DNA of 58,385 nucleotides, from positions 1 through 58,385 of the forward strand of contig JWZX01003227.1 of NCBI GenBank assembly GCA_001275005.1. Reading direction: 5' to 3'. The translations under genes were made by a program, and so were the position numbers. The DNA comes from Chrysochromulina tobinii (Eukaryota). Shown one piece after another: positions 61 to 58,385 of the stretch (its first letter is position 1; the number at the start of each line of letters is the position of its first letter). Below the pieces are notes generated by a model that was not told the DNA's origin, did no database searches, and worked only from the letters and a program-made list of their open reading frames with translations.

Positions 61-1518
61 GCGCCCCCAGCATCCTCGTCAACATTCGGCGCTGTTGCGG
101 GGGCCTCCTGGAGCTGTTCGAGGCGGGCATGCAACTCGCGGCGTTCGCGCTGGTAACCGACGAGCTCCTCGTGCAGCAAGCTCTCGTGCTGCGCTGCGCG
201 CTGCACCTCGGCGCGCATCTCTCCGGCCGTTGCGCGCGCCAGCTGCAGCTTCACCTGACGAAACTCGAGCGCACGGAGTCATCAGGGCTCATCAGGGCTC
301 ATCAGGGCTCATCAGAGGTCATCAAAGGTCATCAGTGGCACTCGCCTCGAGTTTCGTCGCACTCCGCTGCAATTCGGCGAGCGACGCCTGGTTCTGCGAG
401 GATTGCGCAAGGAGATCCAGGATCTCAGAGTCTGGAGACAGCTCGACGCCGTCCTCGGCGCCGTCTGCAGATGCGACAACCTCCTTCGCAGCCAACCGCT
501 CGAGCTCGAGGCGCAGCTGCGCCACCGTGCGCCTCAGCTCGTCGAGCGCGTCGGTACAGTCGGCATCGCCGTCATGCTCGCCACCGGCGAGCGCGCCAAG
601 CTGAACCTCGACCCCCGCAAGCTCGCCCCGCATCGCGTCGCTCTCGATGCGCCGCAGCTTACGCAGCCGCTCCTGGAAGCTGCACAGCGTCGCGACTGTC
701 GACGACTCGAGCTCATCCAGCGCGCTCAGCACAGTCGCAGGGCCCGCGCATGCCGACGACTCGTCCGCCACGGCCGCCTCGACACCCATTTCAGCGAGCT
801 CCTCAGCGGTTGGCACGCGCTCAGGCACGCGCTCTAACAGCCCTCGGGCTTTCAGCCCTCGTGCTAACAGCCCTCGTGCGCGCTCAGCCACCTCCCCTTC
901 AGCGGCGGCCCTGGCTGTTTGCGCCATCTCCGCCTGCGCCTCCGGTGGCGGATCGTTCCTCTCGGCGCGCAGCAGCACCTGTTCGCGGTCCAGGTCGATG
1001 GCATCGCGGTCCTGCGCGCGCCGTCGCTCGAGCCATCGCAACACTTCGAGCAGCTCCATCGTGAAGCTCGATGAGCGCACGGAGAGCGACGCAAACTGCT
1101 CGGCGATCGAGTCGTCGGGCGAGAGTGCATTGAGCGGCGGCGGCTGGATCATCGCAGAGACAGGCAATCCCTTCGCCCTAGCCGCCTTAGCCGCCTCGGC
1201 CTCTGCAAACTCGACTGCAGAGGACCGGCGATACGTGTTGTGCAGCACAGCCGCGGTGCGCTCAATATTCTGCGCCGAACGGTCGAGCATCGTGTGCGAG
1301 AAGTTCTGCTGCTCGAGCATGCGCTCGAGTTGCTCGAGTCCGCGGTCGCCCAGCCCGGCCTCCTCGACAGCGGCACCGCTTCCACGGCTCAAGGCGTCGA
1401 GCTCCTCCTTGAGAGCAAGCAGCAGCTCGTGCAGCACCTGTTTGTCCACACCGAACACCGACTCGTCCCACATCGTCGGCACGAGCGGATCGAAGCGCGC
1501 GAGTGGATTATCGACCAT
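1..1518 (-). CDS. Hypothetical coiled-coil protein, 3'-partial (runs off the window start); exons 1518-346 and 254-1
   Basis: Removing a GC-AG intron at 255-345 joins ...SATKLE to VKLQLARATAGEMRAEVQ...ELHARLEQLQE, continuing the heptad-like pattern into poly-Gly. The start at 1518 (MVDNPL) is tentative. Confidence 0.65.
255..345 (-). other. 91-nt GC-AG intron with 10-nt tandem repeats and an inverted copy of the upstream exon end
   Basis: Sense junctions GAG|GCGAGT...TTTCGTCAG|GTG; internal TGATGAGCCC-type units; 257-269 is the reverse complement of 346-358; splicing restores the frame. Confidence 0.8.
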
Positions 1519-2051
1519 CTTGCCACCTACTGCGAGGCTCACAGCCCCGGAGGCGGAGGGGCGGGGGAGGAGTTCACCCTGTGCCTGCCCACAAGGGACA
1601 AGTTTCTGTAACGTTTCATCAACAGCGACATCGACACAGCACGCGCACCAACAGGCGCCGGACACCCGTATGCACACGTGCACACCGCGTAACTACTCGT
1701 CAGTACAATGTTCTCCGATACCGGTGTATACACCGGTCACCGCAAGCAATCGACCACTGACTGACACACACACACTGATCAACACACATCACGACATCAG
1801 TTACACCCCGCGTAGCCCGACTCATGCACGACACGAGCGATCGCGCACGCTTCCGCGGGAACCGAACAAAGCGCAGCCGCTCACGCGATCGAGGCTCGCA
1901 GGTGCTCCCCAAACCAGCTGGTTGAGCCCACCTGCTGGGTGCAAGGTGCAAGGTGCAAGGTGCAACGTTATGGTGGGAACGTGTGGTGCCGGTAGCAGTC
2001 CGCCATGGAGTGGCGAGAGTCCATCACGGGGAGCGCTGTGGCGAGCGCGGG

Positions 2052-2699
2052 TCACAGCACCGCCGACTTCGGATCGGCCTTCATCTCCTCCTCGTCAAAA
2101 TCCTCCTCATCGATTTCGTCCGTCTTGGGTAGCGCCTTCAGCATGTCGCCAAAGCGAACCACCTCGCCCGCCTGCAGCTCAAACTTTTTGAAGATGCGGA
2201 GCGCATTCGAGAGGAGTGCGTAGCACGTGCCCATGAGCATCACGGTGGCGACCAGTGCAACCTCCCGCTGCATCAGGAGCCATGTCGAGCAGGCCACTGA
2301 GGTGAGCTGTGCGAGGAGCCCCACGCCGAAGACGTTGAAGATGAGTAGCCGCTCCTTGTTCATGCCCTCAACCACCTTCGACATCGAGCCATCTTTGCCA
2401 CGCAGTGCCTTGCCGGAGCCCCACACGGAGACAAAGGTGATGATGGAGACGGCAAACATGTTGCAGCAGATGCTGATTGTCGAGAAAATATGCAACAAGC
2501 CCTTGGCCAGAGGGTTGAAGTGGATCCCATGCAGATGCACCGACATCTCGAGGAAGGCCATCGAGAAACCGCACATCAGTGCAGCCTGCGTGGCCACAGC
2601 GCCGAAGTTCTCGTTGAACAGATTGAGCTCCTTTTCGCGTAGCTCAATCGTGCGCTGCTTGATAGAGCTCCGCAACAGGAGCTTGTCGGCGGCGAGCAT
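2052..2699 (-). CDS. Four-TM Orai/CRAC-channel-like membrane protein
   Basis: TM1 QAALMCGFSMAFLE resembles Orai TM1 SALLSGFAMVAMVE; three more hydrophobic segments and an acidic C-terminal tail. Confidence 0.55.
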   Translation of the reverse strand: MLAADKLLLRSSIKQRTIELREKELNLFNENFGAVATQAALMCGFSMAFLEMSVHLHGIHFNPLAKGLLHIFSTISICCNMFAVSIITFVSVWGSGKALRGKDGSMSKVVEGMNKERLLIFNVFGVGLLAQLTSVACSTWLLMQREVALVATVMLMGTCYALLSNALRIFKKFELQAGEVVRFGDMLKALPKTDEIDEEDFDEEEMKADPKSAVL

Positions 2700-2873
2700 T
2701 TCAACGCCGCGGCGCCGAGGCTTGCTCCGAGAGTCGCTGTGAGCTAGCGAGCGAGCGAGCGAGCTAGGCCGCTGCACAGAGAGGTTCGCGGTTCGGCCGC
2801 GGCGCGCCCGCGACAGCGCTTCGGCACGTAAGAAAACCGACTACTCCTGCATGGTCAAACACTGACCAAGAAA

Positions 2874-4694
<1,821 letters not shown>

Positions 4695-4873
4695 TCACAC
4701 ACGCCGGTGTGAATTATAAACATTGGCTGTGAATGGACCTTTACCCCCACCACCCTCAGACGTCACAGAAACACCGACATGATTTATGTACATGGAAGAC
4801 AGACCCTGCTCTCTCCATGGCGAATGGCCCTCACTGTCAGCACCCCGACTCAGTCCTTGGGGGTCCGCGCGGA

Positions 4874-9390: not shown

Positions 9391-9432
9391 GCGTCAAGTC
9401 AAGACATGTCAAGTCAAGTCACCGAGTGTCAA
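9391..9432. promoter_or_regulatory. GTCAA (TTGAC) pentamer cluster in a divergent intergenic region
   Basis: gtcaagtcaagacatgtcaagtcaagtc...gtcaa lies between divergent starts at 9343 and 9555; the same pattern recurs at 27964-28031. Confidence 0.4.
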
Positions 9433-25862: not shown

Positions 25863-27938
25863 TCAGTCTTCACACGAGTCTTCATCTTCAACCTTCCCCG
25901 CCTCCTCGTTTTCAGATTCGCTCTCAGGATCGCGGCTCCGCCGCCGCTGCCTTGCGCTTGCGCTCATCGTTTCCAGCAAGCCGCCGCGCCGCGCCGCTGC
26001 CTGCAGCCGCCCTCGTCGGACCGGCAAGACATCATCAATGAGTAGCAGCTGCGCGAGGCAGCCCAGGACGCCATCGACGAGCTGCAGTTTGAGGTCGAGT
26101 GGCTCGAGGATGCCGGCACTGGCAGCATCGGACAGCGACTGCAGGTGCACCTCGCCTACCGCACTCGGCGCCTGCGGCGGCACCAACACGAGTCCCAGCG
26201 CGCACCGCGACGACCGATCGTGCGCAGCTCGCAGGCTCTGTAGCACCGACGGCCAGCGGCTCGCATGCGCCGAGAGCGCGCGCGCTTGCGCCGCATTCAT
26301 GTGCAGCTGTCGCACGGAGCGACGGACGCGCTGTGGTGAGCACTTGCATGCAAGGCGGCTCATCCGTGGCAATCAACGTACCTGTCGCACGGGAGCGAGG
26401 AGCGCGGCGGAGAGGATCTGCAGCACGGCCGTTTGCTCAGGAAGGAGCGCCGTGGCGCTCGCGCTCGTACGCGCTTGCTTCTGCGCGGCTACCAACCGTC
26501 GCACGCTCGCCTCGAGCTGCATCTCAGCCGCCCCAGCGCCCGGGAGCGCCAGCAACACTCTGCGCCCCCACTCCTTTGCGTCCGCGTCAGTCCTCGTGCG
26601 CCCCGCGTCCAGCCACAGTCGCAAACTCCGCAGTGCACGGCCGACGGCGGCAGCGTACTCGTTTGCAAGTCCAGGCGAGGTAGCACGCACGACGAGCGAG
26701 CACAGCTGCGGCGCGCTCGCGAGCTGCACGCGCACGTAGCCCCGCCCGCCCAAGCGCAAGCACTCGAAGCTGCATCCTGGCTGAGCGAAGCCCGCAGTCG
26801 GTGTGAGCAGCGCCGTGAGCTCTGCCGGCCGAGGCCAGCGCTGAAGGATGGAGATGCCAGCCGCGGTAGCGAGCGCGCGCAGGTCGTCCTCATCGACGCC
26901 GGGCACGGCGCATACGCCGTGCTGTGCGCACAATTGCACCGTCAGCGCGCTAAGTGGTGCACCGCTCAGTAACAGCCGCACGCCGGCGGCATGGGCTGTC
27001 TGCACCCACGCCTCCCGCGATGCATGCACGAAGTCCACCCACCGGCCGGCCGCGCTGTCTATGCCGTTACAAGTAACGGCCGCGCTGTCTATGCCGCCGG
27101 CAGGCGCTTGATCCGCACTGACCACCACCTCGGCGGGCACGCCAGCCTCCACAGCCCTAGCCTCCGCTGCCGTCTGAACCTCAGGCGCTGCCGCATGGGC
27201 ACCGAGCAGCAGAAGCACACCATCCTTGCCGAACACTGGCATCAGCTCCGAGGACGGCGTGCCGCCGATGATTCGCCCTGCGGTTGCGCACGAGCGACTC
27301 GGCTGCGCACCGGGTGCGGCGACGAGTGCCAAGCACCTCGCGCGCGCCACCGTCCCGTCGAGTTGCCACGTGGCCGCTCCAGCAGGCAGCAGCGTGGCCG
27401 CTCGGGCAGGCAGCACCGCCTCGATGAGCGCCTCGGAGAGCGAGGCCGACGCGCTCGCACCCAGCTGCACGCCGAGCGCCGTTGCGGCTACACGATACGC
27501 ATCGGCACGAAAGGCGTCATCGCCGTCCAGCGTGCGCACCGCCTGCTCTCGCCAGCACTCTGTGAGGTTGTGCGGCAGCACCTCGAGCTGCAACCAGCAG
27601 ACGGCCCTTGACAAGCGCACCCGCCATGCCGCTTGGCGGTCCTTAGGAAGCGCTTGCAGCTGTTGGCCCACCTCGGCGCGTGCAGCGTCAAGCATAAGAG
27701 CGTAGGCTTTCACACCGTCACCGGCTATCTGCTCATGTGCTGATGCGGCTTCGAGCATGAGGCTCTCGATGGGGTGCTGGCTGACGATGGAAGAGAGAAT
27801 GCTCGCGCCACTACAAGTTAGCACTGCCTTACGCGCGGCAGTCAGTAGGAGTTTCTCGCGAGCCAATGGACCGAATGAGGAGCCGAGCGCGCTGCCAAGG
27901 AGTCCGACGTCCCACTTGTGAAAGTCGTAGACGGCCAT
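25863..27938 (-). CDS. BBS10: Chaperonin-like Bardet-Biedl protein, best resembling BBS10; exons 27938-26382 and 26306-25863
   Basis: SSFGP, QHPI and AGDGVK (BBS10-type GDGxK); after splicing 26307-26381 the TCP-1-like C-terminus GILEPLDLKLQL...LLLIDDVL is in frame. Confidence 0.7.
26307..26381 (-). other. 75-nt GT-AG intron with the palindromic motif and a direct exon-end duplication
   Basis: CAG|GTACGT...CAG|CTG; exon end TCGCTCCCGTGCGACAG versus intron end TCGCTCCGTGCGACAG. Confidence 0.85.
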
Positions 27939-27963: not shown

Positions 27964-28031
27964 AGTCAAGCCGTCAAGTCAAGTCAAGTCAAGTTCAAGA
28001 AGTCAATTCAAGCCAAGTCATTTCAAGTCAA
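27964..28031. promoter_or_regulatory. (AGTCA)n / GTCAA repeat cluster between divergent BBS10 and ENY2
   Basis: About ten gtcaa/ttcaa units starting about 25 nt upstream of the BBS10 ATG. Confidence 0.45.
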
Positions 28032-29457: not shown

Positions 29458-29586
29458 GAGGCTGCTGCGCCGCGGGCACGAGCCGTCGCTCATCCAGCAG
29501 CGTATAGGCGCTGTGATGAGCACTTGCATGCAAGGCGGCCGAGGCTACTGCGCCGCGGGCACGAGCCGTCGCTCATCCAGCAGCGT
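29458..29586. repeat. 46-nt direct repeat (29458-29503 and 29541-29586, one mismatch) flanking the palindromic motif
   Basis: Read directly from the sequence; the single mismatch is the ATG18 stop TAG versus CAG. Confidence 0.95.
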
Positions 29587-30933: not shown

Positions 30934-33900
30934 TTAGCTCCGTGACGCGTACGTTGCGCTTGGGGCCGGCGCGGGTGCGGGCGCGGGCGCCGCGAGCACA
31001 TTCTTGAACGAGACGAGCCGCTCGGCACGCTCGCGATAGGTGCGGAGGAGCTCGGGGAGGAGCTCTTCGAGCTTCTCGTTCTCGGCGATGGCCGAGCGGA
31101 ATGTGACCTTGGCCAGGCCCGTCGGCTCGCCGGCCGCCGCATCGACACCGACGTGGTGCGTGAGCGTGCCGCCCGTCATCTTGTTCATGTGCAGCTGGAT
31201 CTTGAGGGAGCCTACTGGTAGGGCACGCGATGCCTCACGAGAGGCCTGGCGGCGCGCGAGGATGGCGTGCAGCGGCTCGTAGAGGGGGAGCACCTGCGCG
31301 AGGCCGAGGGGCTGCGGAACGAAGGCGAAGCAGCCCGGCTGCGCCTCGCCATAGAGGAGGCGCCACACCTCACAGAGCGTCAAGCGCAGCCGGGCGTGCC
31401 CCGCCGAGCCTCTCCCCATGAGTTCCCACAGAAGGCTGGCGGCCGCAATGGGCGCCGCCTCCCCGCGTTGCGCGAGCCGGCGCCGCTCGCGCTCGAGCCC
31501 CGCGCGGTAGCTCACGGCGGCGCGTGCATGCCTGTCCCTTGCCTCGTCCTCATCGTCGAGGCCGTCCTCGCCGACCGCACGCGCGCCGCGCACCGCCTGG
31601 CTCCCCTCCGAGTGTGAATTCACAGCCTGCTTGAGCAGGCGCAGCACCGCTTGCCAGAGCCACAGCTGCTCTAACGGCTCGTCCTTCCGCCGCTCCGAGA
31701 GCCCGAGGGCGAGCCCGAGCACGGACGTCGGGCGCGGGTGCGACGGCTCGTGCCGCACGGCGCCCGTGCCGCCCGTGCCGCCCTCGCGCCCAGCCCCAGC
31801 TGTGAATTCACACTCGGCTCCAACCGCTTCATCGCGAACGGCTGCCGCCTCGTCTGGCCGCTCAGGTCCGGCGAGAAGGGTGAGCCGGAGGAGGCAATCC
31901 GCGGCGGCCAGGCGCACGGACGGCAGCTGGCCGGCGGCCTCGTAGTGCCAGTAAGTGCGCCAGCTGGGGGTGGAGGCGGTGTCGGCCGAGGCGGAGGCCG
32001 AGGCGGAGGCGGGGGCGGAGGCGGGGGCGGAGGTCGATGCGGAGTGCGCGCGTGCAATCTCCACTGTACAGAGCGCATGCAGCGCGGCGCGGCAGAGGGC
32101 GCCGCCGTCGCGCGCGCCGGCGCCACGCCCTTCGAACGAGACGGAGACGAGCCGAAGCTGCCGCGTGATTCGGGCAACGACCTCGCGTTTTGCCCCTGGG
32201 TGGCGGCAGCGCGTGGTCGCGAGCGCCCGGAGCAGCGCGCCCACGTAGGCGCCATCGTCGAACTCGTTGCTCTCGTTGTCGTTCTCGTCGATGAGCTGGA
32301 GGAGCAGCTCGAAGGCGCCGGCCGGGGTGAAGCCCGAGGCGTCGCGGCACGTGCCGAGCGCCTCGACGAGCGCCTTGAACGTCGCGTACTCGCTCAAGTC
32401 CCCAAAATCGTTCGGGAGGACGTGGCCGCCCGTGTCGCACAGGAGCTCGCGCGCGAGCGCCACGAGCGCCTCGGCAGCCGCGCCCTCCGACACGAGCGCC
32501 GTGAGGCGCGCGAGCGCCGCAACGGCTGCGGTGCGCACGCGGAAGTACACGCTCCGGTCGCGCGCCACGTCGACGAGTGTGTGGACGGCCGTTGGGTTGG
32601 GAAAGGTAGCGAGGGCCGCCGCCGCCGCCTCTCGCGAGGGCACGTCCCGATCAAAGAGCAGCTGCGCCGTGCACATGCTCTCGGGCATGCCGGCCCACGC
32701 GCCATCGCCGGCGCGCCCGGTCCACGTGACGCGCACTGGCAGCTCGAGCCGCGGGTCGAGGCGTACCCAGAGCAGCGGGAGCAGCTGCCACGGCGCGGAG
32801 CTCGCCTCGTCCGCATCGTCGACGGCGGCGCGCGAGCGCTTGAGATGGCGCCGTCGCCGATGCGAACTGATCACCACTTCAATGAGCTGCTGCCGATCGA
32901 CTGGGCTGAGCTTCTTGTCGATCGTGCGGCTCACGCCGCCGTCGGCGCCGTCGTGCTCACCCCACCCGATGACGAGGGGGAACTCTCCGATCTGTGCGGC
33001 GGCCAACGGCTTGGGCGAGATCACGACGAGCTCGAGGCGGTGCTGCGGCTGGTTGAAGGCGAAGTTGGCGCGCAGCGTGGGGCACGGCTTGGCGGCGTAC
33101 ACCCACTCGCTCGCGAACGAGGCGCCCAACCGCACTCCCTGCGCCACGCATGCCGCCAGCAGTGCCGCCGTCGACGAAATGCGCTCAGGACGGCGCTCAT
33201 GCATCCCAGCCACCGCGGACGTCGAGGCGGTCGGCGTGCCGGCGTGCGCTGCGCAGCTCGATTCGACTGGCCGCCTGTTCGGCCGACTGGGCAGCAGATG
33301 CGCGAGCAGCCGGCTGAGCGACTGTTGGCCGCCGTCGGAGCGGATGGCAGCGGCCTCGATCATTCGCCACACGAGGGGCGCCTTGCGCCGGCGGTACTCG
33401 GTGAAGAGCTGCTCGGGATGGAGCCCACCGCCCCACCGCTCAAGCTCGGTGCTGTCGGGCACGAGAGCCTCTGGAGGCGCTCCCGCCTCCGTGAGCCACG
33501 CGCGCTCCTCGCTCAGCCGATGAGCTGCCTCGTCCGAACCGAACAGTGATCATCAGCGATCATCAGTGGCAATCAGTGGTCATCAGCGGTCATCATCAGT
33601 GGTCATCATCAATGGACACTCACCTGCCTCGTCCGAGCCAAACTCATGACGCGTGTACTCGTGCACCAAGCGCCCCTCGAGAGCCATGAGAAGCCATGCC
33701 TCGCGCCAACCGTCGAGCCACAAGAGCGCGAGCAGCCACGAGCGGCCAAGCGCACGGCCGAGCTCGATGCAGCTCGGGCGCGCCGGCTCGAGCGCCTCGG
33801 GCGAGTGGAGCCAGTGAGAAGAGAGCAGCACCAGCCCTCCAAACGATGCTGTCTCCTCACGAGCTCCTTCGAGCACCACGAGCACGTGGCGTGCGTACGG

Positions 33901-44606: not shown

Positions 44607-45827
44607 CGCCTTGGGTGAGACGGCGAATGGCTTCATGACGGTCGGGCCGCCTTCGACCCTCGCGGCCGGGAGCAGCTTCCTCCTCGAGTGGGCTCTGACC
44701 AGCCAGCCGGAGACGGCCGTGCTCGAGACGGCCGTGCGTGCCCTCACCGCCGAGGTGCGCCATCTCGAGCTCGAGCTCACGCGCCGTCTCGAGCACGAGC
44801 AGCAGCGGGCGGCGGTTACGGCGGAGGCGGCGGTTACGGCGGTTACAGCGGTTACGAGATCGGAGCCCGAGGGCGCTCACGAGGGCGCTCAGAGCGCTGC
44901 CGAGGGCGCTCACGAGGGCGCTCAGAGCGCTGCCAGGCAGCGGCTGCTCGCCGCCCTCCAGCGGCTCGTTAGGATGCTCCCCTCCGCTGCGAACGCCTCC
45001 GCCCCCTCCCCCAACGGCGGCGCTGTCGTGGGCGTGGACGCTATCGTGGGCGTGGACGCTGTCGTGGGCGGCGCGAACGCCTCCGCCCCCTCCCCCAATG
45101 GCGGCGCGGCCGCCGAGGCCGCGCCCGCTCCTGCCGCCGCCAGCGCCTCGAGAGAGAGACGCGAGGAAGCGTTGGTGGCCGAGGCGCTCGAGGGCGCGCT
45201 TCGGGCCCAAAAGATCTTCCGCGACAAGGTGGAGGAGTGCCGTCGGCTGCGCGCGTCCATGCGGCGCTCTCCGGTGGTGACGAACCCCGCGCGCTCGAGC
45301 GATCGCTCGGGGTTAGTCACCACCGGATTCCGCTTCGACGACCGTGTGGCCTTCGTGCGCCGCGCCAGCGTCCCCCGGGGGAGTGCCCCCGGGGGGAGTG
45401 TGGCCGCTGTGGGCGCCGGGTTGGGCGCTCCCGGGCAGCTCGTGGCGGCGGGCGGCAAGGCAGCGGCGCCCCATTCAGTGCCATTGTATGTTGCATTGCG
45501 TGAAGGTGCCGCTGGACCTCTCCCTCCTTTCTCTGGTGGGCGTCTCTCTGCATGCAGGTGCTCACCACGGCGCCCTCGCCTCTCCCCACAGGTGACGCAG
45601 GGCCTCCCTACTTTCTCTCGAGGGCGTCTGAGGAGAGCCTGTGCCGCGCGATGCACTGTACGCATGCGAGCCTGCCGCCCGTCGCCATCGGCAAGGTGGT
45701 GCACGTCGAGAAGCTGCACGCATCCCCCGAGAACGCGGCGGCTCTTGGCTTGCGCCCTGGCGCGCCCTTCAACGTCATCACGGCCGAGATGCACACCGAC
45801 CTCGCGCCCGAAGTGACGGGAAGGTGA
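42154..45827 (+). CDS. ATG11/FIP200-like scaffold with an embedded ATG1/ULK kinase domain; exons 42154-45505 and 45592-45827
   Basis: Kinase motifs IGTGSFAQV, ALKAI, HRDIKPQNLLL, IADFGLAR, TVCGSPLYMAPE; Claw-like C-terminus after splicing; N-terminal helical region resembling ATG17/ATG11. Confidence 0.8.
45506..45591 (+). other. 86-nt GT-AG intron with the palindromic motif (alternative in-phase donor at 45536)
   Basis: GAAG|GTGCCG...CCCCACAG|GTGACG; splicing shifts into the frame of ORF 45552-45827. Confidence 0.8.
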
Positions 45828-46302
45828 CAGTCTGACAGTCTCGCCGCGGGCGGGTCTCGCGTCGAATGAACGGTCCGTCGTCCGAGATACAACGCGTCGT
45901 CGTTTGGGCTCGGCTATTCATGCGTTCATCGGATTGCTTTTCATGCGAATTGCGATTGCTACCGTAGTTGCACCGACCCCACGACACGGAGTTTAACACT
46001 TCAAGGTGCGTGAAGTATTACTCACGAGAGTTCGTAATACACAGCGAATCGCATCGAACACGGACCACGTCGGCGCGCACACTCACCGTCACACTCAGAC
46101 ACAGTAACACCCCACCGCGGAGCGTCGGTAGATTTCGACTCACATCCCCCACCATCACATGGTAAGTTCAGGACCAGTGTGTGTGGGACCACGTCGGCCA
46201 CACTATCTTTGAATTGGTTGCCCCGCCCTCCTGCTTCCAGCGTGTTTCGCCGCGCCCACGGACTTGGCGCCCTCGATCCTCGTCGCTCACCCTCAGCCGC
46301 AT

Positions 46303-46381
46303 CTGAGCCGCACCTCAGCAATGTATCGCAATGTATCGCAATGTATCGCAATGTATCGCAATGTATCGCAATGTAGCGCAC
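46303..46381 (-). other. Putative 79-nt 3'-UTR intron: (GATACATTGC)x5-6 with an exact 15-nt flanking direct repeat
   Basis: ctgagccgcacctca at 46303-46317 and 46382-46396; sense junctions CAG|GTGCGC...CTCAG|. Confidence 0.65.
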
Positions 46382-46507
46382 CTGAGCCGCACCTCACTTG
46401 CCAGTGCTCTCTTTCGCTCTCAACTCTCGCGAGCTCTCATGCAACTTGCTCGTCGGGACGGCGCCACGTCACGCTGCTTCTCTTCTGCCTTCTCCTCGGC
46501 GCACCCC

Positions 46508-47740
46508 TCACATGGAGCGCAGCTCGTTGAGAGAGGCGAGTAGCGTCTGAGCGAGCTCCCGCTGCTGCGCCAGCACCGCCGCCCTCTCGGCCAAGTCCCG
46601 ACCGCGTGTGTCGCCCGCCGCCGCCGCTGCCGCCGCCGCCCGCGTTGCGGCCTGCATGAGCTCCGAGTGATCTCCGCCGGAGCCTCCGCGAGCAGTTGGG
46701 CGCGCTCTTTGAATGACCTCCGAAGAGCGTCGAGGTGCCTCGGGACGTGCCACGGCATGCTCATCACGGCGCCTCATGGCCTGCCAGAACCCAGGCTCCT
46801 GACTAGGCAAGCCCGCGCGGGCGGCAGGCTCTTGACTGGGCAAGCCCGCGCTGGCGGCAGGTTTCTGACTAGGCAAGCCCGCGCGGGCGGCAGGTTGACT
46901 GGGCCCCTGATCCTCCTTGGGCCCCTGATTCTCCTTGGGGCGAAGCAGCGCCGGCGCCGTCCGGCTAGTCGAGCCGCTGATTTCGTTGAACCAGAAGGGC
47001 TCACCTGCCGCCGTGCGCATCACCTTCCAGCCAGGGTCGATCTCTTCGGCCACGGGCTCTTGCCACGCGATGCGCCCGCGCGAGGGCGAGAGGGGCGGCG
47101 AGGGTGCGGGAGGTGGCTCGGGCGCGGGAGGTGGCGCGCACGCAGTGAGCGCTGCATGCAACGCCAAGGCATGCGCGTCCAGCACCTCGCGACGGCGCGC
47201 CTCGTCGGACCTCGACCCTCCTTCAGCGCCGTGAGGAGCGCCGCGGCCACTCCCTAGCACGCCGGGGCCGCCGTTGCGCCGCTGAAGATCGATCAGATGC
47301 ATCGCCATGGTGAGGTCGCCATGGGTCGCGGCCATCGCCGCCTGCGCCGTCGCGAGGCTCACCTCCATCGCAGCGGCGAGCGAGTGCGAGAGGAGCTCGC
47401 GTGATCCGCCGGCTTGCGTCTCCGCCGCCGTCTGCGCCAGCCCATCGTAGTTGTCATCATCGTACTCCGTCATGGCCGCCCGACGCGCCGTCGCGGCGCG
47501 TGCGCGTGCTTGCTCCTGTGCTTCTGCCTGCGCAACTCGCGCCGTAGCGGTCTTCACAGCCTCGCGTGACTCGTTCACGGCGCGCTGGAGCTGCGCCTCC
47601 TCCTGCGAGAGTGCCTCCTCCTGCCGCGCGAGAAGAATGCCCTCCTCGATCTCCCGCTCGATCTCGATCTCCCGCTCGATCTCCCGCTCCTCGGCACCCA
47701 CGGCCACCGCCTCCTCGTCCACCTCGAAATCATCCTCGTA

Positions 47741-47804
<64 letters not shown>

Positions 47805-49130
47805 GGCCCGGCATGGCGCAACGCCCGATGGACCACGCTCGCCTCCTCCTGCAGCGCATGGGCCTTGAGACCAATGGTGCGCATCATCTCGAGTGCCGCG
47901 TCGAGCTCGTCGCGCATCGCGTACATGAGCGCATCGCGCGACGGCCCCACCGCCTGCTCAAAGTCGGCAGCTTCCGCCTGCTCGAAGTCGGCGGCTTTCG
48001 CCTGCTGCTGCCGCTCCTGCTGCTGCTCCTCGAGCCTCAGCCGGAGCCGCCGCATCTCATTCTGCTGCTGCATGTGCTGCAGCATGTGCTGCTGCTGCTG
48101 TTGCTGCTGCTGCTGAAGGAGCTCCTCCCTCTCCAGAAGCTCCGCGCGATGGCGTTCGCGCTCCTCCTGGCGCTGACGCGTGGCCTCGGCTTCGTCCCAC
48201 GCCTTCTGCAGCTCCTGTGCCTGAAGAAGGAACTCGTCCTGCGCGCGGCGCTCCGCCTGGCGCGCGGCGACCGACCCTGCCTCGTGCATGCGACGCTCCT
48301 GCCCGAGTCACACGCCGAATTCTCGCAATTAGAAGCCAATCTGAGGCAATCAAGGGTCATCAGAGGACATCAGTGGTCATCACCTGCTCCAGCCGCGCGT
48401 CCTCCGCTTCGCCGAGCACAGACGCGGCCACGCGTGCTTCGAAAGCGGCGCGTGCCTCCCGTTCCCATCCGTCCCACGCGGACGAGGTGCGCCGGAGGGC
48501 CTCGAAACGCGCGAGCAGCTGCGGCAGCGTGCCGATCGGGTTGATCACGGGGCGCCGCTGCTGCGCGAGGGCCGTGGCATCCGCTGCAGAGAGGGCCTCC
48601 TTCCACATCAGCAGCAGGCAGCCCGTGGTTCCGGCGCGGTGGGCGCCAGCAAGGCAGTGCACGAGCACATTGTTGCCGGCGCTGAGCGCCTCGTCGACGA
48701 AGCGGAAGAGCGGCGTCACGAAGTCGAGCAGTGACCGCGAGTCGCCTGAGTGGCGCATGTGGTGTGCCGCGTGGAACCGCATGTACTTCACGCCGCCATC
48801 ACAAAAGTTGGGCAGGTCGTCGGTCGCGTTCACGACGTGCGTGATGTCGGCCGCCTTGAAGTAGCTCAGGGGGCCGCGGGCTGCCGATTCGTTGCCCACG
48901 AAGATGATGCCGCCCGTGGTAGGATCACGCCAGAGGGCGTCCATGTCGTGGTAGCTGGCGCTGTCGCCCTCGCCGAGCGTGGCAAAGAGCTTGCGCGCCT
49001 CGGCGGAGTAGTCGTGCTCGGCCGGGCCCGGCGAGTGCTGCTCGAGAAGCGCGAAAAGCCGCCGTGCGGCGGCGGAGTCCATGCCAGCCGCTGCTGATGA
49101 GCGCATTCGCGCGCGGTCCTCACTGTTCAT
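46508..49130 (-). CDS. Dual-specificity phosphatase with coiled coil, acidic tract and WW-like domain; exons 49130-48384 and 48298-46508
   Basis: VLVHCLAGAHRA (HCx5R), ITHVVN, RRPVINP; WW-like PGWKVMRTAAGEPFWFNEISGSTS; intron 48299-48383 joins two ORFs in frame. Confidence 0.85.
48299..48383 (-). other. 85-nt GT-AG decamer-repeat intron
   Basis: CAG|GTGATGACCACTGATGTCCTCTGATGACCC...GGGCAG|GAG; only GCAG is shared with the exon end. Confidence 0.85.
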
Positions 49131-49211: not shown

Positions 49212-50887
49212 CTACAACAAACTATCCAAATAGTCGTTCTCATGCGCCCCGGGCGTGAGCGACGCAGGAAGGCTGCTTCGTGGGCGTGGAAGCGAGTGAG
49301 CAGCGCTGATGCGCCGCGCCGCATTGAGGATGGCATCCGCCTCGCGCTGCGCCTCGAAGAGCAGTTCGTGCGCCTGCCGATCCGCCTCGAACATCAGGTT
49401 GTCGGCCGCCTCTTGGGTCTCGTCAAGGAAGCTCCTCGATGGCGCCTCTTGGGTCTCGTCAAGGAAGCTCCTCGATGGCGCCTCTTGGGTCTCGTCAAGG
49501 AAGCTCCTCGATGGCGGGGCTGGCTGGTCCTCTCGGAGCTCTGTGTGCATCGGATCGGACGAGGCGGGTGCCTGGGCCGTGCCTGTAGTCGGTGTCGAGT
49601 CGGAGTGCCGTCGGTGTGCTGTGGGCCCGAGGTGTGAGGGAGCCTCGCCGACCAAGCCGCTGCGGCTGCCCCTACGCGCGATGAAGAACGAGGCAACCTG
49701 CCCTCCTGCCCGCGGCGACGGTGGCGGTTCCGGCGTGGTCGCTTCCGCGTAGCTCTTCGAACTAGCTCGGCCCCTTGCGCCATCCATACCGTCCTCGTCT
49801 GCATCGCTGGCGAGCCTGGCGTAGTGCCGCGCGCCCGCATCCCCTAAAGTGGTGATCGTGGGGAAAGCAGCCGACAGGTGGCTATCGCACCGTGCCGCAA
49901 CCTCGCCGCCATCTCGCCGCCATCTCGCCGCCATCTCGCTTCGAATTCTGACGAAGGCGAACGCCGCCACGCTCACGAGCATGAGTCCTTGGAGCCCGAG
50001 CTCCCATGTGGGCTCGTGCGGCATTGAGGGCGGCATCGGGGGCGGTAGTCGGGGGGGGGGGCCTTGGAGGCTCGAGCGGCAGTCTCGGCGAGGGTGGCGG
50101 CGGCGAGGGTGGCGGTGGTGGCGGTGGTGGAGGCGGCGGGGTGAGCGGTGGCGGCGAGGGCGGTGGCAAGGACGGCGGCGGTGGCGGCGGTGGCGAGGGC
50201 GGCGGAGAAGCTGGAGGTGGCGGAGATGGCGGCGGCGACGACGGCGGCGGCAAGGGTGGAGGCGGCAACGGCGGCGGCAAGGGAGGCGGCCAGGGAGGCG
50301 GTGGTGAAGGCGGTGGTGGCAAGGGCAGTGGTGGCGAGGGCGGCGATGGTGAGGGCGGTGGCGGTGAGGGCGGTGGTGGTGAGGGCGGTGGGAAGCTGGG
50401 TGGCGGCGGCGAGGGCGGTGGCGACGGCAGCGGTGGCGATGGCGGTGGTGATGGCGGCAGTGGCGACGGCGGCAGCAATGGTGGAGGAGGCGAGGACGGC
50501 GGTGCTGAGGGTGGAGGTGATGGTGGAAGAAAGAAGCGCCGCCCACAGTCGGTGCAATCCGTGCCAAAGTCGCACTGGGCCGGCGTCTCATACAGGTCTG
50601 TAAGTGAGCCAGGCCCGCCGTCTTGGCATGCGGCGTTGCTCGCTTGAGGGCACGAGTCGTCGCATTCCATTGGCGGGGGCGGCAGTGAGGGCGGCGGCAG
50701 CGATGGCGGCGGCGGGGACGGTGGCGGTGGTGACGGCGGGAACTTGTAGCGTGCGCCACAGTCGGCACAGTCAGTGCCGATGACACACTGAGCCACGGCA
50801 CCATACACGCCAGTCAGCGAGCCTGGGCCACCGTCTTGGCATGCGCCATTCTGCGCGAATACACACGTATTGCTGCACCACATCGGC

Positions 50888-50932
<45 letters not shown>

Positions 50933-51931
50933 AGCGGCGGCAGCGGCGGCAGTGGAGACAAAGTCGGTGGTGGCATCGAAGATGGTGGTGGTGGCTTCGG
51001 GGGAGGTGGTGATTGCATCCCGGGTGGTGGGAGTGGCATCGGGGGAGGTGGTGATGGCATCGGAGGTGGAGGCGGCAAGGGCGGTGGCGATGGCGGCGGT
51101 GGTGATGACGGTGGTGATGGCGGCGGCGGCGGCGGCGGTGACGGCGGAGATGGCGGTGGCGACTGTGAGGGTGGCAGCACTGGCGGAGGTGGCAGCGGAA
51201 AAGGCAGCATTGGCGGCGGACGCGGTGGCGTCGGCGAAGGCAGCAGCGGTGGTGGCGGTGACGGCGAGGGCGGCGGCGGCGGCAACCAAGGTGGAGGACA
51301 TGGTGGTGTCGAGGGTGGCGGCGACGGCTTCGGGGGAGGTGGCGGCGTTGGAGGTGGTGGCGATGGCAGCGGTGGTGGTGCTGGTGATGGTGGTGGTGAA
51401 GGTGGTGGTGGCCACTCTCGAGGGCCGCAATCGGTGCAGTCGGTGCCAAGGTTGCAGTCAGAGTACACCGTTCCGGGTCCGCCGTCGTCGCACCCACCGT
51501 CTGAGGCGTAGTTGCACATGTCTGTGCAGGTTGATGGTGGCGGCGGCGGAGGTGGCGGCAATTGCGAAGACGGCAGCAACGGTGGTGGTGGCATTGGTGA
51601 AGGTGGCGGGGACAGCGAGCACCTGTCTGTCGTGTTAACGTTCACACGACGCCCGCCTCTTACCCCCAGCTTTTTGAGTTGCCGAACCTATTTACGTATC
51701 CGCCGCCTCGTCACTAATTGGGGGTCAAAGTGGGCTGGCCAGTACGCAATACGCAACACGCAATACACAACACGCAATACGCAACACGCAATACGCAACA
51801 CGCACAGAGGGTCAAAGTGGGCTGGATGTGAAAATTGCAGTCATACGCACGAAACATCACCTCAGAGCACGGACGATCAACCGTCGCATGCAAAACCAAT
51901 TCACCAGCGCACACGCAAAAAAGCACGCCAT
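49212..51931 (-). CDS. Proline-rich (extensin-like) cell-surface protein with three Cys-rich DGGPG repeats and a C-terminal TM; apparent +1 frameshift at G11 50051-50061; tentative first exon 51931-51861 with intron 51623-51860
   Basis: Three CxxxC..A.dg.C.DGGPG...C..GTDC.DCG modules in SPPPP linkers; the TM LGLQGLMLVSVAAFAFV lies in the adjacent frame after the homopolymer. Confidence 0.7.
51722..51825. repeat. 7-nt tandem (ACGCAAY)n flanked by the 17-nt direct repeat gggtcaaagtgggctgg
   Basis: Copies at 51722-51738 and 51809-51825. Confidence 0.9.
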
Positions 51932-52816: not shown

Positions 52817-53103
52817 GGTGCGGGGTCGGCTCGCTCGCAAGGTGCTTCGCTCTCGCTTTGGCAGTACGGACCGGTATTTAGAAAAGTTGGCGACTTTTCG
52901 ATACTGGTAGAGATATTTTGCGCGAGCGCAGCGCGCAACAAAATTGTTCCGCGAGCGCCTCCCCCCCAAAGTTTGTCTTTTGTCTCACCGGACCGTACCT
53001 AACGAGGCGGGCGACCTTCGGGCGGCTAGTCGTGACACCCCTACCCCCCCCTGGCGGTCCCCCCCTGTGCGGCCTCGCCGCGGCGTTCTATCCCTCATCT
53101 TTC

Positions 53104-53865
53104 TTACGACAGGTACTTCAACAGCTCGCTGTCCGTATATGTGAGCGGTATCTTGTAGCTTGCGAGCTTCTCGCGGTACCACTCAGCTTGCGCGTGCCCG
53201 CCACCCAAGAAGCCGACCACCTCCATTTTCGCGGCTTGAGCTGCCATGACGCCGGACGTGGAGTCCTCGACAACAACACACTGACTCGGGTCCACGCCAG
53301 CCGCCGCGGCCGCCATCAAGAAGATGTCGGGTTGAGGTTTGCCCCTCCCAGGCACGTCTTCGCGTGTGAAGACTTGGTCCTTGCCAGCGAAGACGTGGTC
53401 GATGCCCGCAACCTCAAGGCACACGAGCACGCGGTCACGCGGCGAGCCTGAGGCAACAACCTGCTTACGTCCAGCTGCGTGCAGCGCCAGCACCGTTTTG
53501 GCGTTGAGCTGAGTGAGCCGGTTGCGGAAGAGCTCAATCGAGCCCTCAATCTGGTCCTTGAAGAAGTTGTCGGGGACTGGCTTCCCAAACTCGTTGAGGA
53601 AGTTTTTTGCGCCCGCTTCGGGCGAATATCCAGAAAACAGCCGGTTGCAGTCGTCGCGCGTCACCTGCAAAAATCCGGCTGCATGCAGTGCCTCAACCTC
53701 GGCAGTCTTGAGCAACGCTTCCGAATCTACGAGGCATCCGTCGCAGTCCCAAATGATGAGGTCAGCTGCCATGCGCGTCGGACCACCGCGAACGGACTTC
53801 GCATTGCGCACGGTCGCGATAGGCGACCACGCGATTGCGAGCGCAGCCAGCGCGACCGATACCAT
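53104..53865 (-). CDS. HAD-superfamily hydrolase (CbbY/subfamily IA-like), probably plastid-targeted
   Basis: WDCDGCLVDSE, VASGS, GKPQPDIFL, VVEDSTSGV; leader MVSVALAALAIAW. Confidence 0.9.
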   Translation of the reverse strand: MVSVALAALAIAWSPIATVRNAKSVRGGPTRMAADLIIWDCDGCLVDSEALLKTAEVEALHAAGFLQVTRDDCNRLFSGYSPEAGAKNFLNEFGKPVPDNFFKDQIEGSIELFRNRLTQLNAKTVLALHAAGRKQVVASGSPRDRVLVCLEVAGIDHVFAGKDQVFTREDVPGRGKPQPDIFLMAAAAAGVDPSQCVVVEDSTSGVMAAQAAKMEVVGFLGGGHAQAEWYREKLASYKIPLTYTDSELLKYLS

Positions 53866-54100
53866 TTGGAAGGGGACGGCCCCACACCGCAAGGGGCACG
53901 TGCCGAGCCGAGGGTGCGTGGGAGGTTTTGCCGCGTCTCCCAAACAAGTACAGTACAGAACGCGACTGTGAACTCAACGCAAGTCGTGTGAAGGCGATTG
54001 TCTCTTTTTCCGTGATTCGTCCCGGCGGCCCCCCCTCGAAAAATAAATTGGTGTCGGACGAAATCCAAAAAGGGAAAACTGAACCAAAAGGGGAAAGGAG

Positions 54101-55213
54101 ATGTGTGGCGGCCGAATGCCCGCGTACATGGTACAAGAACTCATGCCTCGTTGCGGCTTGCTCGTGTTGCTCGGACTCGCGACGATCGCGAGCATCACAA
54201 CGCTTCGAAAAGTCCATCGTGCTTCGGCGCAGCTGGACCCGCGTCCCACCTGCCCATGCAGCCGTGTGCTGCACGGCGGGTGCTATGGTGGTGGCAGCTG
54301 CTCTGCTGGTGGCCCATCCCTCGGAGATGACGTTGAGGTGGTGATTGCGCACTGCGATCACAGCATAGATTTCCTGGAGGATATGCGTGGGGATATTGCC
54401 TCCGCTGGCCTACGCCTGAAGTTGATCTTGATTGTTGCCAAATGTGGCGAAACTGCTGCCTTACGTGCCTTGCGAAACACCGCCTCACGTGAGCTTTTGG
54501 GCGTGCTCAAAGTCGTGCAACAACCCAATGTTGGACGCTGCGATCAAAGCTGGGCATCTCACATCGCAACAAACTACCACACCCTTCCCTCTCGGCTGAT
54601 CATGATCAAAGACTCATGGGCTGACCACAACCTATTTGAGCGGCTGAATGGCTCGGCTCTGGTCGCTGCGACCGCCTCCGGCTTCGCGTGCGCCTATGGC
54701 AATATACAGTGCAGGCAGCGGGACGCGTGCAAGGACGGCGATGAGCATCTGTGGCACTCGGCAGCGGAGCTGTTGTCATTCATGATTGTGGCATACAAAA
54801 AGTCGTGGGATCAAAGCAATCATTCCATCGCGCCCGACTTTAAGGCGAGGTACCGACCCTTGGGCAAATGGATGCTTTCATTGCAGCTGCCGCGCGACGT
54901 CGAGACACGAGGCTACCTCCCGGTGTGCTATGGCGGCGGCTTCGTTGCTACACGATCCGCCGTCCATCGCCTGCCCGAGAGTGCTTGGAGGAGGATTGTG
55001 GAATCGCTCTCACGCGGCGATAACGTTGAGGAGAGCCACTACATGGAGCGCATGTGGGCCGCACTGCTCACTCCTCCACTCACGCCGAGTGAGACGCGCG
55101 CGATGGCGTGTGTTGCAAAGAAGGCGGATCGTGTGATGCTCCCCTACTTGAAGGGCTCCGTGAATAATTGCTTTTGCGGCGACGTCGAACGCTGCGGGGC
55201 AGGGCTGGATTGA
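54101..55213 (+). CDS. DUF3431-like type II membrane protein (putative glycosyltransferase)
   Basis: N-terminal TM, VEVVIAH, PNVGR...HIATNYHTLP, GGGFVATRSAV, EESHYMERMWAALL. Confidence 0.65.
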   Translation: MCGGRMPAYMVQELMPRCGLLVLLGLATIASITTLRKVHRASAQLDPRPTCPCSRVLHGGCYGGGSCSAGGPSLGDDVEVVIAHCDHSIDFLEDMRGDIASAGLRLKLILIVAKCGETAALRALRNTASRELLGVLKVVQQPNVGRCDQSWASHIATNYHTLPSRLIMIKDSWADHNLFERLNGSALVAATASGFACAYGNIQCRQRDACKDGDEHLWHSAAELLSFMIVAYKKSWDQSNHSIAPDFKARYRPLGKWMLSLQLPRDVETRGYLPVCYGGGFVATRSAVHRLPESAWRRIVESLSRGDNVEESHYMERMWAALLTPPLTPSETRAMACVAKKADRVMLPYLKGSVNNCFCGDVERCGAGLD

Positions 55214-55890
55214 GAAGATGACTCCAACATCGACGGCGACAGGAATTTACCAACTTCGACGGCGACGGCGTCATAGGGGCTTCAGACCTGCTTGCGTCAC
55301 TGCGCAAACGCATGCGCAATCATCAAGCGTGACAACGACCCCGACGGCCAGGGTCTGGCCGACGACAGCAACGGCGGCGGCGGTGGTTCGGCGGCCCTCA
55401 AGGAGCACCCTCCGTTGCGCGTTGGAGCCGAGAGGAGCGGAGGAGCCTGCGGCAGGGGTCTAAAATGCATGCTATAATGGTCTTCTCTAAAGGGATGGTT
55501 ATACGTAAACAGTCCCGAGAGCTGCCCGAGGGCCGACTCTGGGTCCCCTATTCTAGCATGTGTATTCAAGACAGTACCGCGAGTACGGGTCTGCGGGCGA
55601 GGGTGGGCGGCACGACAAGAACACGCGGTGACGGCAGAGTGTAGGCAGAGTGACGGGGGCCGAGGTGTCAGGTGATCCCCAGCGGAGCAGCCGAGAGGAT
55701 GCTGCGGGGGGCGCTGTCTGTGTCTCAGTCCGAGTCTACGGTCTGAGTCGAGTGCAGTTTTTCCCTGCTCGGGATGGCACGGGAGGTTCTTGCCAGTCTC
55801 CGAGCAGGGAAGATCCTCGCCTTCTTCACGCCCCCGCGATATCGTGCATGTACTACATGTAACTCAAGTACGCAGCCTAGATGTGATGTC

Positions 55891-58385
55891 TCAGAGCTCG
55901 GCTAGCCGACTGAGCGCCGCTACCTCAGGCGACTGGGACTGCCACGCCTGCTCGATGCGCTCCTGACAGCGCACCCACGCAGGCAACGGAACGGTGCCGT
56001 CCGCATTCGTCTCGTCCACAGCACGCAGGATGTGGCGCCCTTCCTGCTCGAGGAGTGCCTTCCGATGAGGGATGCAATCAGAGGCCATCAGCGGCCATCA
56101 GCGGTCATCAGCGCACCTGCTCGAGAAGTGCGTGCAGCTGCGTGCGTCGCTTCGCGTCCCACTCGCGCGCGATTGTCGAGTATGACGGGCCCGCCGTGTG
56201 GTCCGCCTCCAAGAAGGCGAGGAAGGCCTCCGGGTGAGCACCAGCGCCTTCGAGCAGCATCCGAAAGCGCATTGTGAATAGCTCACACACGCATTCGGCA
56301 ATCTCGGCGCCGTGGCGCGAGTCGCTCGTGAGTGCCGAGAGCACACGCACGATGAGGAGGCGCGTCTCCGTAACGGCTGCCGGTGTAACGGCTGCCGGTG
56401 TAACGGCTGCCGGTGTAACGGCTGCCGGTGTAACGGCTGCCGGTGTAACGGCTGCCGGTGCGACTGGTGTAACGGCTGCCGGTGCGACTGGTCCCAAGAG
56501 CGGGCGCAGCAGCAGCACGAGGCCGCCCAGTCGGAGGAAAGCGAGCACCGCGGCCGGCGAGCGGCGCACAAGGTCGACGACGAGGCCCAGCGAGCCGGCG
56601 GCCAGCGTTGGGGTGCGCGTGCTCAACGCGACGAGGCCCAGCAGATGAGCGCCCTTGACCGACGAGGCGAACTCGATGGCGCCCACGACGGCGCCGCCTG
56701 GCTTGGAGAGGGCCTGCAGCACCTGCAGCACGAGTGAGAGCACCGAGAGCGGCATCGGCGAGCGCACGCTACCGAAGAAGAAGTCGGCCGCCGCGACGCA
56801 CGCGCGGTGCGTGCACAGGGACGCATGCAGCGTGAGGAGCTGCAGCAGTGCCTTCCACATCAGGGCCGCGTGACGCCCCAGGCGCACAACGGCCGTCTCG
56901 GCATCGAGCGCGTCGTCCTGGGCGCATATCGCGTCGTCCTGGGCATATAACGCGTCGTCCTGGGCGCCTCGGGCGCTCGTGGCCGCCGCCTCCTCCTCCT
57001 CCTCCTCCTCGGCCTCGATTGCAAATCGTGGCTGCGAAGCGCTCATCACGGCGCTGTGGAGCGGGCGAGACAGGTCCCGAAGCGCCGTGATGAGCGCCAC
57101 CAGGAAGTGGCCGGCCGCCGCTGCCGTCGCGAACGAGAACTTGCCGTCCGCGGCCACGAAGGGCTCGAGGAACAAGCCGCCCACATTGAGGTCCGTCTCG
57201 GCTGCCGCGAGCTTCGCAAGCAGTGCGGTGGGCGCCCAGCACGGCGCCCAGCCCACGTCACTCCTCACCGGCGCCGTGCTGGGCGCCGTACTGAGCGCCG
57301 TCCTGAGCGCCGTGCTGGGCGCCGTGCTGGGCCCGCCGCCGCGACCGTCGCCCACTCCGAGCAACTCGACGATCGGGCCCAGCTCGTCCTCCTCGAGATC
57401 ACATCGGAGATTACATCGGAGGTTGCATCGGAGCGACTCGACGATCGGGCTCAGCTCGTCCTCGAGGGCTAGGCGGAGCCGCGACCGCCGCTCGGCGTGC
57501 CAGATCAGGAGCGGGTTGGAATGATTCGCGTCGAGCTGAGCGAGCAGCGCGCTCGCCTCCCCAAAAGACATGCACGCGAGCTCATCCACAAACTGCGGCG
57601 ATTAGTGGCAATTATTGGCAGTCAGTGGCAACTGGTGGAAATTAGTGACAATTAGAGGCGATTAGTGGCAATTAGAGGCAATTAGAGGCAATCAGTGGCG
57701 CCCACCTGCGGCGCGAGGCAGCGATCGAGGAGCTCTTCCGCCGCAGGGCCCACGGTGGCGTCGGCGAGCAGTGCGCAGAGAGTGTCGACTGCCGCCGCGC
57801 GCACTTCGATCGAGGCGCCTTGGAGGAGCGGGTCGGGGAGCGGGTCGGGGGGCGGGTCGGGGGGCGGGTCGGGGGGCGGGTCGGTGGGGGCGATCGGGTC
57901 GGTGGGGGAGGTCGGGGAGGGGCTCTCCGGCAAGTAGTCGAGCAGTAACGTGGAATGGCCAAGGACATGGAAGAGACACGAGAGCACGACTCCTCCGCGC
58001 ACCACCGCCTCCGCCACGCTCACAACGGCGCCATTTGGCCCGACCGCACCACTGGGCCCGACCGGTGCGTTGTCTCGCCGGTCGCTCAGCACGGCGCGAG
58101 GCGGGCGCTCAGTACGGCGCCACGGGCGCTCCGACGAGGCGCCGTCCTGAGCGCCCGTGCTCTCGAGCCTGATGAGGGCGGCAATCAGGCGCAGCGTGCC
58201 CGCACGCCCCCTCGGGGGTAGTGGTGCGTGCGTGTAAGAGCACGTGGAGCCGCGGGAGCGCCTGCAGTGCGAAGCGCACGGCCGCGTCGCGCGCCGTCGT
58301 GAGCGCCCCGGAGGCCGCTCGCGCTGTCTCGGGCGCATCGGCCGTCGCGGCGGCGCGCGCCGTCGTGAGCGCGGTGGGCGTGGGT
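55891..58385 (-). CDS. 5'-partial helical-repeat protein resembling the RME-8/DNAJC13 C-terminal region; introns 57593-57705 and 56044-56116
   Basis: LDANHSNPLLIW and LNVGGLFLEPF resemble RME-8 NPxLIW and ELxVGxxF segments; two introns join three ORFs in frame; upstream exon structure unresolved. Confidence 0.55.
56044..56116 (-). other. 73-nt GT-AG decamer-repeat intron with a 14/15-nt direct exon-end duplication
   Basis: Exon end GCACTTCTCGAGCAG versus intron end GCACTCCTCGAGCAG. Confidence 0.9.
57593..57705 (-). other. 113-nt GT-AG intron almost entirely of 10-nt repeats, with an 8-nt direct duplication
   Basis: About ten CTAATTGCCW/CTGATTGCCT units; CGCCGCAG ends both the exon and the intron. 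Confidence 0.9.

Follow-up and report, generated by a model that had tools for sequence, protein, structure and literature searches.

Introduction

The origin of introns is a long-standing question, for which Introner transposons and fragment capture at repaired breaks have so far been treated separately. We describe here a class of short introns in a 58,385-nt contig of the freshwater haptophyte alga Chrysochromulina tobinii (JWZX01003227.1, positions 1 to 58,385 of the forward strand; this whole stretch is referred to below as the window), in which a recognizable, multiplying intron family bears the footprint of break capture. The closest described systems are the Introners of marine Chrysochromulina metagenome-assembled genomes, which are ~72 nt long, have a 4-bp target-site duplication (TSD) and no terminal inverted repeats, and lie almost all in genes (Gozashti et al. 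2022, PMC9860276). As described there, they resemble the present introns in coming from the same genus, in being short and multi-copy, in lacking terminal inverted repeats and in co-opting one splice site from the duplication. However, the marine element carries its own 5' site and duplicates 4 bp, whereas the duplications reported here span 11–53 nt, provide either or both splice sites and enclose elements with variable ends; the 2 systems are set apart by description and not by sequence.

Other known systems overlap with ours in part. Introner-like elements of Polarella and Symbiodinium may also take either splice site from the TSD and occur in several frames per family, but each class has a fixed TSD of 3–8 nt (10.1101/2020.10.14.339549), whereas in the present family both the duplication length and the element ends vary. 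The gain of introns through break repair, as described for Daphnia, Drosophila and Aspergillus, involves short direct repeats and an exogenous fragment (PMC3020277); in our case, long repeats enclose a patch that belongs to a recognizable, self-amplifying intron family. Fungal introner-like elements and the Hypoxylon sister (stw)introns are likewise self-similar introns that spread in coding strands with no known transposase, but their integration is seamless and they carry long inverted repeats (PMC8469720), in contrast to the long duplications and lack of significant folding observed here. Among haptophyte introns with direct repeats, Introner family 24 of Emiliania huxleyi has '10bp terminal direct repeats' and differs in its few copies, 5 in all (PMC12130899).

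The same survey, published in 2025, records 0 Introner families for C. tobinii. Since the Introner pipeline requires similarity near both splice boundaries (within 10 intronic nt) and removes repeat-rich families (PMC9860276), the present class is excluded from such a survey by design. The C. tobinii genome is 59 Mb with about one intron per gene (PMC4580454), and nine members per 58-kb window, if extrapolated from this one window, would amount to several thousand genome-wide. A literature search of titles and abstracts returned no paper on this intron class; the genome papers on C. parva and E. huxleyi, and some survey supplements, may bear on it. Introners and break-repair intron gain are known; what appears to be new here is the occurrence of long, variable duplications around fragments of a self-copying intron family.

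Members of the class in the window

A preliminary description, made from the window sequence, had listed eight short introns in seven unrelated genes, each built from a duplicated exon end and a tandem-repeat or palindrome filler. We find all eight intervals, each with GT or GC..AG ends, and removal of each of the seven introns in coding regions fuses 2 open frames. The genes number six, because the interval at 46303–46381 is located in the 3'-untranslated region (3'-UTR) of the dual-specificity phosphatase (DSP) gene that also holds 48299–48383. Also, the list omitted a ninth member, at 29458–29586. The design of duplication plus filler stands; what had been missed is that both fillers, the decamer and the palindrome, belong to a single multi-copy family, as described below.

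In five members, all on the minus strand, the end of the upstream exon is copied at the end of the intron, as had been reported. The predicted TAF2 intron (33525–33623), supported by orthologue alignment, has a GTGAG head, a decamer array and an exon-end copy that would serve as acceptor, with a duplication of 13 nt exact or 20 nt allowing 2 mismatches. The predicted intron of the BBS10-like gene (26307–26381), supported in the same way, is a near full-length family copy, with a GTACG head, two decamer units and the palindrome core, its 3' end being replaced by an exon-end copy. This intronic copy (26307–26322) matches the exon over 16 nt with one indel (11 nt exact), and its exonic partner, by sequence match, is the 17-nt segment at 26382–26398. 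The intron at 56044–56116 has a GTGCG head, a decamer array, a relic of the family tail and, as acceptor, an exon-end copy of 14/15 nt (9 nt exact), and the one at 57593–57705 in the same gene has a decamer array and an 8-nt exon-end copy that forms the acceptor; the latter intron is present almost whole on an X12 DNA contig. The fifth, at 46303–46381 and 127 nt beyond the DSP stop codon, is a 3'-UTR insertion with intron-like ends. Its 10-mer array uses a unit different from the family decamer, a 20-nt duplication (46377–46396 and 46298–46317) spans its donor, and its exon-end/intron-end match is 15 nt exact.

The remaining members depart from this pattern, three of them in the manner described before. 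The putative GC-AG intron at 255–345 (minus strand), whose removal would join 449 and 84 open codons, contains a decamer array; its exon-end/intron-end exact match is 2 nt, and the end of the upstream exon recurs, inverted, over 13 nt in its acceptor region. In the plus-strand protein-kinase gene intron at 45506–45591, the donor is a ~40-nt diverged copy of the start of the next exon, followed by the palindrome core and a pyrimidine tail. The DSP gene intron at 48299–48383 (minus strand) has a degenerate decamer array and ends that share just 4–5 nt (exact exon-end match 4). The ninth member, at the 3' end of a PROPPIN gene (29458–29586, minus strand), is an internal family fragment of 37 nt with the palindrome core, enclosed by a 46-nt duplication (29541–29586 and 29458–29503), and has no exact GT/GC-AG register. 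The PROPPIN frame terminates at a stop codon in the first duplicated copy and would otherwise run for ~40 further codons. As for ordinary introns of the window, which had been said to be free of such fillers, the three ENY2 introns do lack them, although one has a 6-nt end match.

Splicing and age

We interpret the class as recently gained spliceosomal introns. RNA contigs were compared with the segment 45000–58385, which contains 5 of the introns, and 4 of these are skipped exactly: 45506–45591 (run X16), 48299–48383 (X16 and X18), 56044–56116 (X13 and X15) and 57593–57705 (X16). The short side of the RNA joint measures 255 nt at 56044–56116 and 28 nt at 57593–57705. A reverse-transcription artefact is an unlikely source of these joints, because they fall at GT-AG registers that restore reading frames and one of them has only 5 shared nt. 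For the fifth interval, 46303–46381, the splicing assumed earlier found no support in these RNA contigs, since X16 contigs retain it unspliced; in an X18 contig, whose strain differs slightly, the interval is missing and the duplicated segment occurs just once. This contig may represent either an empty allele or a spliced product.

The window has a GC content of 65% and contains no N. The source alga is a member of the C. parva/tobinii complex; its DDX41 protein is 99.8% identical over 600 aa to that of Chrysochromulina parva, 79% to that of Haptolina ericina and 75% to that of Prymnesium parvum. As had been predicted for recent gains, distant relatives lack the TAF2 and BBS10 introns, because their orthologous open reading frames (ORFs) run through the sites: five ORFs for TAF2 (38–49% identity) and four for BBS10 (45–67% identity), with which the spliced proteins align gap-free. 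The database orthologue proteins are unspliced ORF calls, and several of them come from contigs much longer than the gene. In close strains, the ORF calls end two residues into the BBS10 intron or begin after the TAF2 intron, and the BBS10 intron is present in all four close clusters.

We also aligned six overlapping pairs of metagenome loci from different assemblies. Most family introns were common to both members of a pair, array lengths differed at such common sites, and 1 site showed presence/absence. There, a 78-nt copy in locus L141, in frame, stop-free and lacking the family head, is flanked by a 31–32-nt duplication; it is cleanly missing from L145 (98% identical, with 69 mismatches over 4117 aligned nt), where the duplicated segment occurs only once. 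Clean absence together with a single copy of the segment is what the preliminary description had predicted for an empty site.

These observations bear on the proposal that the introns are old, that their positions are not new, and that repair templated by mRNA or cDNA has put exon sequence in place of their ends. Duplications that stop exactly at splice junctions, and several arrays that are stacked onto the donors of existing family introns, would accord with it. Against this, the TAF2 and BBS10 introns are missing from distant orthologues, the site in L145 is cleanly empty, and copies with no splice register occur. We regard this explanation as highly improbable.

A single intron family

For a test at genome scale we used at least 144 metagenome loci (658 kb), picked by their decamer-array pattern; all counts of arrays, cores and duplications outside the window refer to loci among the matches listed. 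Seven loci deemed non-haptophyte from GC content and size, without inspection, and 12 redundant loci were left out before counting. The unanchored direct-repeat search and the core search covered 629 kb of these loci.

The palindrome filler has a core, GCATGCAAGTGCTCACCACGGCGC, with 111 matches in 629 kb. A second shared end, the array tail CCCTCATCAG, is common on arrays. Several loci, including window 26307, carry the GTACG head, two decamer units and the core as a single piece, which links the decamer and palindrome fillers; the head was matched 15 times, in ~7 cases together with the core. Judged by sequence, each filler is a fragment of the same ~70-nt intron family, which is copied between unlinked genes. 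Near-identical copies occur on unlinked loci, and inserts are cut at either end or at both ends. Copies within 3 kb of each other do not resemble one another more than they resemble those on other loci (p 0.36 and 0.22), which suggests that most templating occurs in trans. A predominance of local (cis) copying is unsupported, yet the nearest neighbour was local in 6/40 cases, with 6% expected. CTRAY/CTRAT is the established branch-point consensus, and the decamer and the core each contain such a motif, whose use is predicted. No folding above that of shuffled sequences was detected in 5 introns (z -0.7 to 1.1), and no terminal inverted repeats were seen in the listed array and core copies.

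Tandem repeats of 10–11 bp also occur in introns of E. huxleyi, for which our literature search gave no confirmation. The preliminary description had entertained a telomerase-like, reiterative synthesis in which a short RNA would template the decamer at a break; a variable repeat count, a 10-nt period and the frequent position of arrays next to a duplication can be cited for it. Such synthesis should yield an invariant unit, but units vary widely: the commonest 10-mer makes up 340 of 2539, and the 14 commonest together only a part. Array length at the same site differs between assemblies and so shifts after insertion; many copies consist of the non-repetitive core with no array; the window segment 26200–26500 has no Rfam match; and the same decamer pattern is found in ~80 prokaryote contigs, nearly all bacterial-looking. 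We consider telomerase-like synthesis very unlikely.

In bacteria, we observed the decamer tandem pattern in 84 stretches (L004–L087) of unrelated genomes, mostly intergenic and often with an inverted partner; these arrays are likely convergent, and L041 and L080 among them look like algal contamination within bacterial bins. Scans of the viral collection gave a single family-like contig (L001/L232), besides two arrays unrelated to the family, with no sign of a viral source. The former, filed as viral, ends in the family core with an acceptor, has a 30-nt duplication around a different 10-mer, and is probably host DNA.

Flanking duplications

Long flanking duplications are far more frequent than expected by chance, in agreement with the preliminary description. 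After removal of duplicates and short flanks, 425 array hits were reduced to 293, of which 127 have an exact flanking repeat of at least 10 nt, vs 2.7% of 1458 permuted pairs. A second comparison was anchored on GT/GC and AG; it excluded 170 compound arrays and, of 123 simple arrays, 6 that lacked flanks. In the resulting set, 39/117 arrays score 10 or more, vs 1/231 controls. The duplication is on the donor side in 18 of the 39 (11–37 nt) and on the acceptor side in 11 (14–33 nt), so that the acceptor-side copying emphasized earlier does occur but is not the commoner form. Duplications shorter than ~10 nt cannot be told from chance in these tests. Isolated copies of the palindrome core gave a similar picture, with duplications in 40/54 vs 3/160 controls, one orthologous site (L141/L145) being entered twice among the 54. 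A separate count over 100 core copies gave 55/100 vs 7/196 controls. The duplications of the isolated core copies are 11–53 nt long and show 62 mismatches in 1080 nt.

Duplication lengths are continuous over 11–53 nt and do not fit a fixed TSD of 3–9 bp. Because the duplication is variable and fragments are cut at either end, a DNA transposon with a fixed TSD is excluded as the direct cause, in line with the variable duplications and lack of terminal inverted repeats noted before. In a modified form of this explanation, a classical DNA-transposon Introner would have inserted with a short fixed TSD, and its ends would have been overwritten later by local duplication. The head shared by near full-length copies, the 4–5 nt shared at 48299, the re-duplication of units after insertion and the published 4-bp-TSD family of the genus lend it some support. 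Yet the sole polymorphic copy already has its 31–32-nt duplication and has no family head, long duplications are found on near full-length copies too, and, as stated above, neither terminal inverted repeats nor significant folding were detected. We consider it unlikely.

By the features used in Introner surveys, the family shares sequence across unrelated genes (the core matches above) and has been gained recently, 2/2 window sites tested being absent from distant orthologue ORFs and 1 site showing presence/absence. Similarity within 10 intronic nt of both boundaries is lacking, one end being usually the locus-specific 11–53-nt duplication, and the array form is dominated by short tandem repeats (10-mers), while the core form would pass such a filter. 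The family works like an Introner, but because of these 2 departures and the failure of the fixed-TSD test we have not filed it as a member.

There were also observations of composite structures. In L089, L113, L114, L119, L145 and L158, units of duplication plus filler are tandemly repeated 2–3 times, and arrays are stacked on the donors of existing family introns; existing family copies look like hot spots. Partial additional target copies lie within the inserts of L170 and L111. Junction microhomology averaged 1.4 nt (n=13) and 2.7 nt (n=6), vs 0.4 and 0.3 nt in the respective controls, with a single case of 12 nt in L124.

Splice register

The unanchored search for long direct repeats yielded 216 pairs, which enclose 79 arrays, 22 core copies, 16 other 10-periodic spacers and 99 other sequences. 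An exact GT-AG register was present in 43 of the 79 arrays in the sense orientation vs 8 in antisense, and in 14 vs 4 of the 22 core copies; 6/16 of the other 10-periodic spacers and, with either strand allowed, 11/99 of the other sequences had one. GT begins the next exon after 94/139 array tails and 54/100 core copies, the background after CAG being 5.6%. These results conform to a rule of complementation: the duplication provides whichever splice site the fragment lacks. Fourteen isolated cores were counted as having no register; 8 of these are true internal fragments, and some others hide a register behind an indel. Of these 8, five keep the frame, and three are read through by long ORFs. 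Such in-frame copies with no register suggest that insertion is independent of splice sites, and that it is likely selection that sets the splice register.

Where the strand could be called, 150 copies were sense and 4 antisense, with 192 unclear (arrays, 110 sense, 3 antisense and 131 unclear; core, 40, 1 and 61, respectively). The copies with no register and a known strand were sense in 4/4 cases, which is a hint only as to whether the template is DNA or RNA. This bias enters into the next explanation, a SINE-like retroposition in which a non-LTR enzyme would reverse-transcribe family intron RNA at a nick and so generate 5'-truncated copies with variable TSDs. It would account for the strong sense bias, for the variable duplication length and for the commonest, donor-side form, in which the 3' end is fixed at AG and the 5' end varies; also, non-LTR Introners are known, including one haptophyte family. 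It does not readily accommodate the 11 acceptor-side (3'-truncated) copies and the 8 internal-only copies, a poly(A) tail was not seen, and duplications reach 53 nt. Neither a reverse transcriptase nor a transposase was found in the 53 longest of the 229 ORFs of the loci, a weak negative since these cover ~1% of a genome. Retroposition is the main rival of the explanation favoured below, and a serious one, although we hold it to be less probable.

Several loci deserve mention with regard to register. Non-AG acceptors (TG, CG) were suspected in L095, L200 and L223 and then dropped, the second copy there being the donor of an adjacent core-type intron. In L108 (minus strand, 10430) and L122 (plus strand, 11764), an exact register would require a GG donor, and either rare donors or out-of-register splicing may be involved. 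Internal fragments in frame within long ORFs are found in L111 (5723–9544, plus), L097 (14839–19368, plus) and L124 (1811–3871, minus), one of the ORFs being a protein kinase. They would add 19–23 residues including a duplicated peptide, and gene models of this alga may carry such inserts.

Mechanism

The introns are real, recent and abundant, and the mechanism is undecided between the readings discussed here. The explanation that we favour, and to which we give about even chances, is that they originate when a staggered DNA break is patched from a template, selection likely keeping the cleanly spliced copies; break repair with templated synthesis was also the model preferred in the preliminary description. 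We favour it on account of truncation at both ends, partial extra copies of the target, a single inverted copy and, occasionally, microhomology. In such an event, a strand would leave the target, copy part of an existing family intron (DNA or RNA) and return upstream of its point of departure, with the result that the target is duplicated. A 3' fragment would bring the branch-point-like motif and AG, and GT would come from the duplication; a 5' fragment would bring GT and take AG from the duplication; an internal fragment would require AG|GT within the duplication, or else survive only in frame or outside coding sequence. Afterwards, arrays would change length by slippage and whole units would re-duplicate. 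We infer the repair step itself; the anatomy, the splicing, the absence in relatives, the empty site, the copying between unlinked genes and the variable ends are observations.

Several points weigh against break patching. The nearly all-sense orientation, including 4/4 of the copies with no register, is unexpected from a DNA template, and 78/117 simple arrays have no long duplication. The commonest form, with its fixed 3' end at AG and variable 5' end, fits target-primed reverse transcription too. The excess of microhomology is small, and the lenient controls understate chance; inverted copies are scarce (5/117 vs 8/1162 controls). The L141/L145 site is unpolarized, so that it may record gain or loss, and splicing of the L141 copy is predicted only. 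It should be noted as well that the sampled loci, among the matches listed, were chosen through the array pattern, and that the enzyme and the intermediate of the repair step are hypothetical.

A bolder extension of these ideas, which we put forward as a rather unlikely conjecture, is that the intron family reproduces without any transposon. The cell's own repair or reverse-transcribing machinery would patch breaks with intron RNA, invariably in the target gene's sense orientation, and every copy would serve as template for the next. Thousands of this alga's introns would have arisen in this manner, and haptophytes would have a general source of intron gain that is invisible to surveys. The mechanism is directly testable, given a cultured alga, available genomes of the complex and at least 1 polymorphic site.

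Other observations

The kinase (plus strand) and phosphatase (minus strand) genes of the window are convergent, and RNA contigs, which are strandless, suggest that their 3' ends overlap near the 46.3-kb insertion (46018–46584 and 45590–46347). A long low-complexity region of the Gly/Pro type at 49900–51700, with a G skew of 0.30, attracts many spurious read joints. Arrays of the pentamer GTCAA are located directly upstream of genes at 9393–9421 and 27966–28031; in L092/L094, an intergenic stretch rich in indels is marked by this repeat as well.

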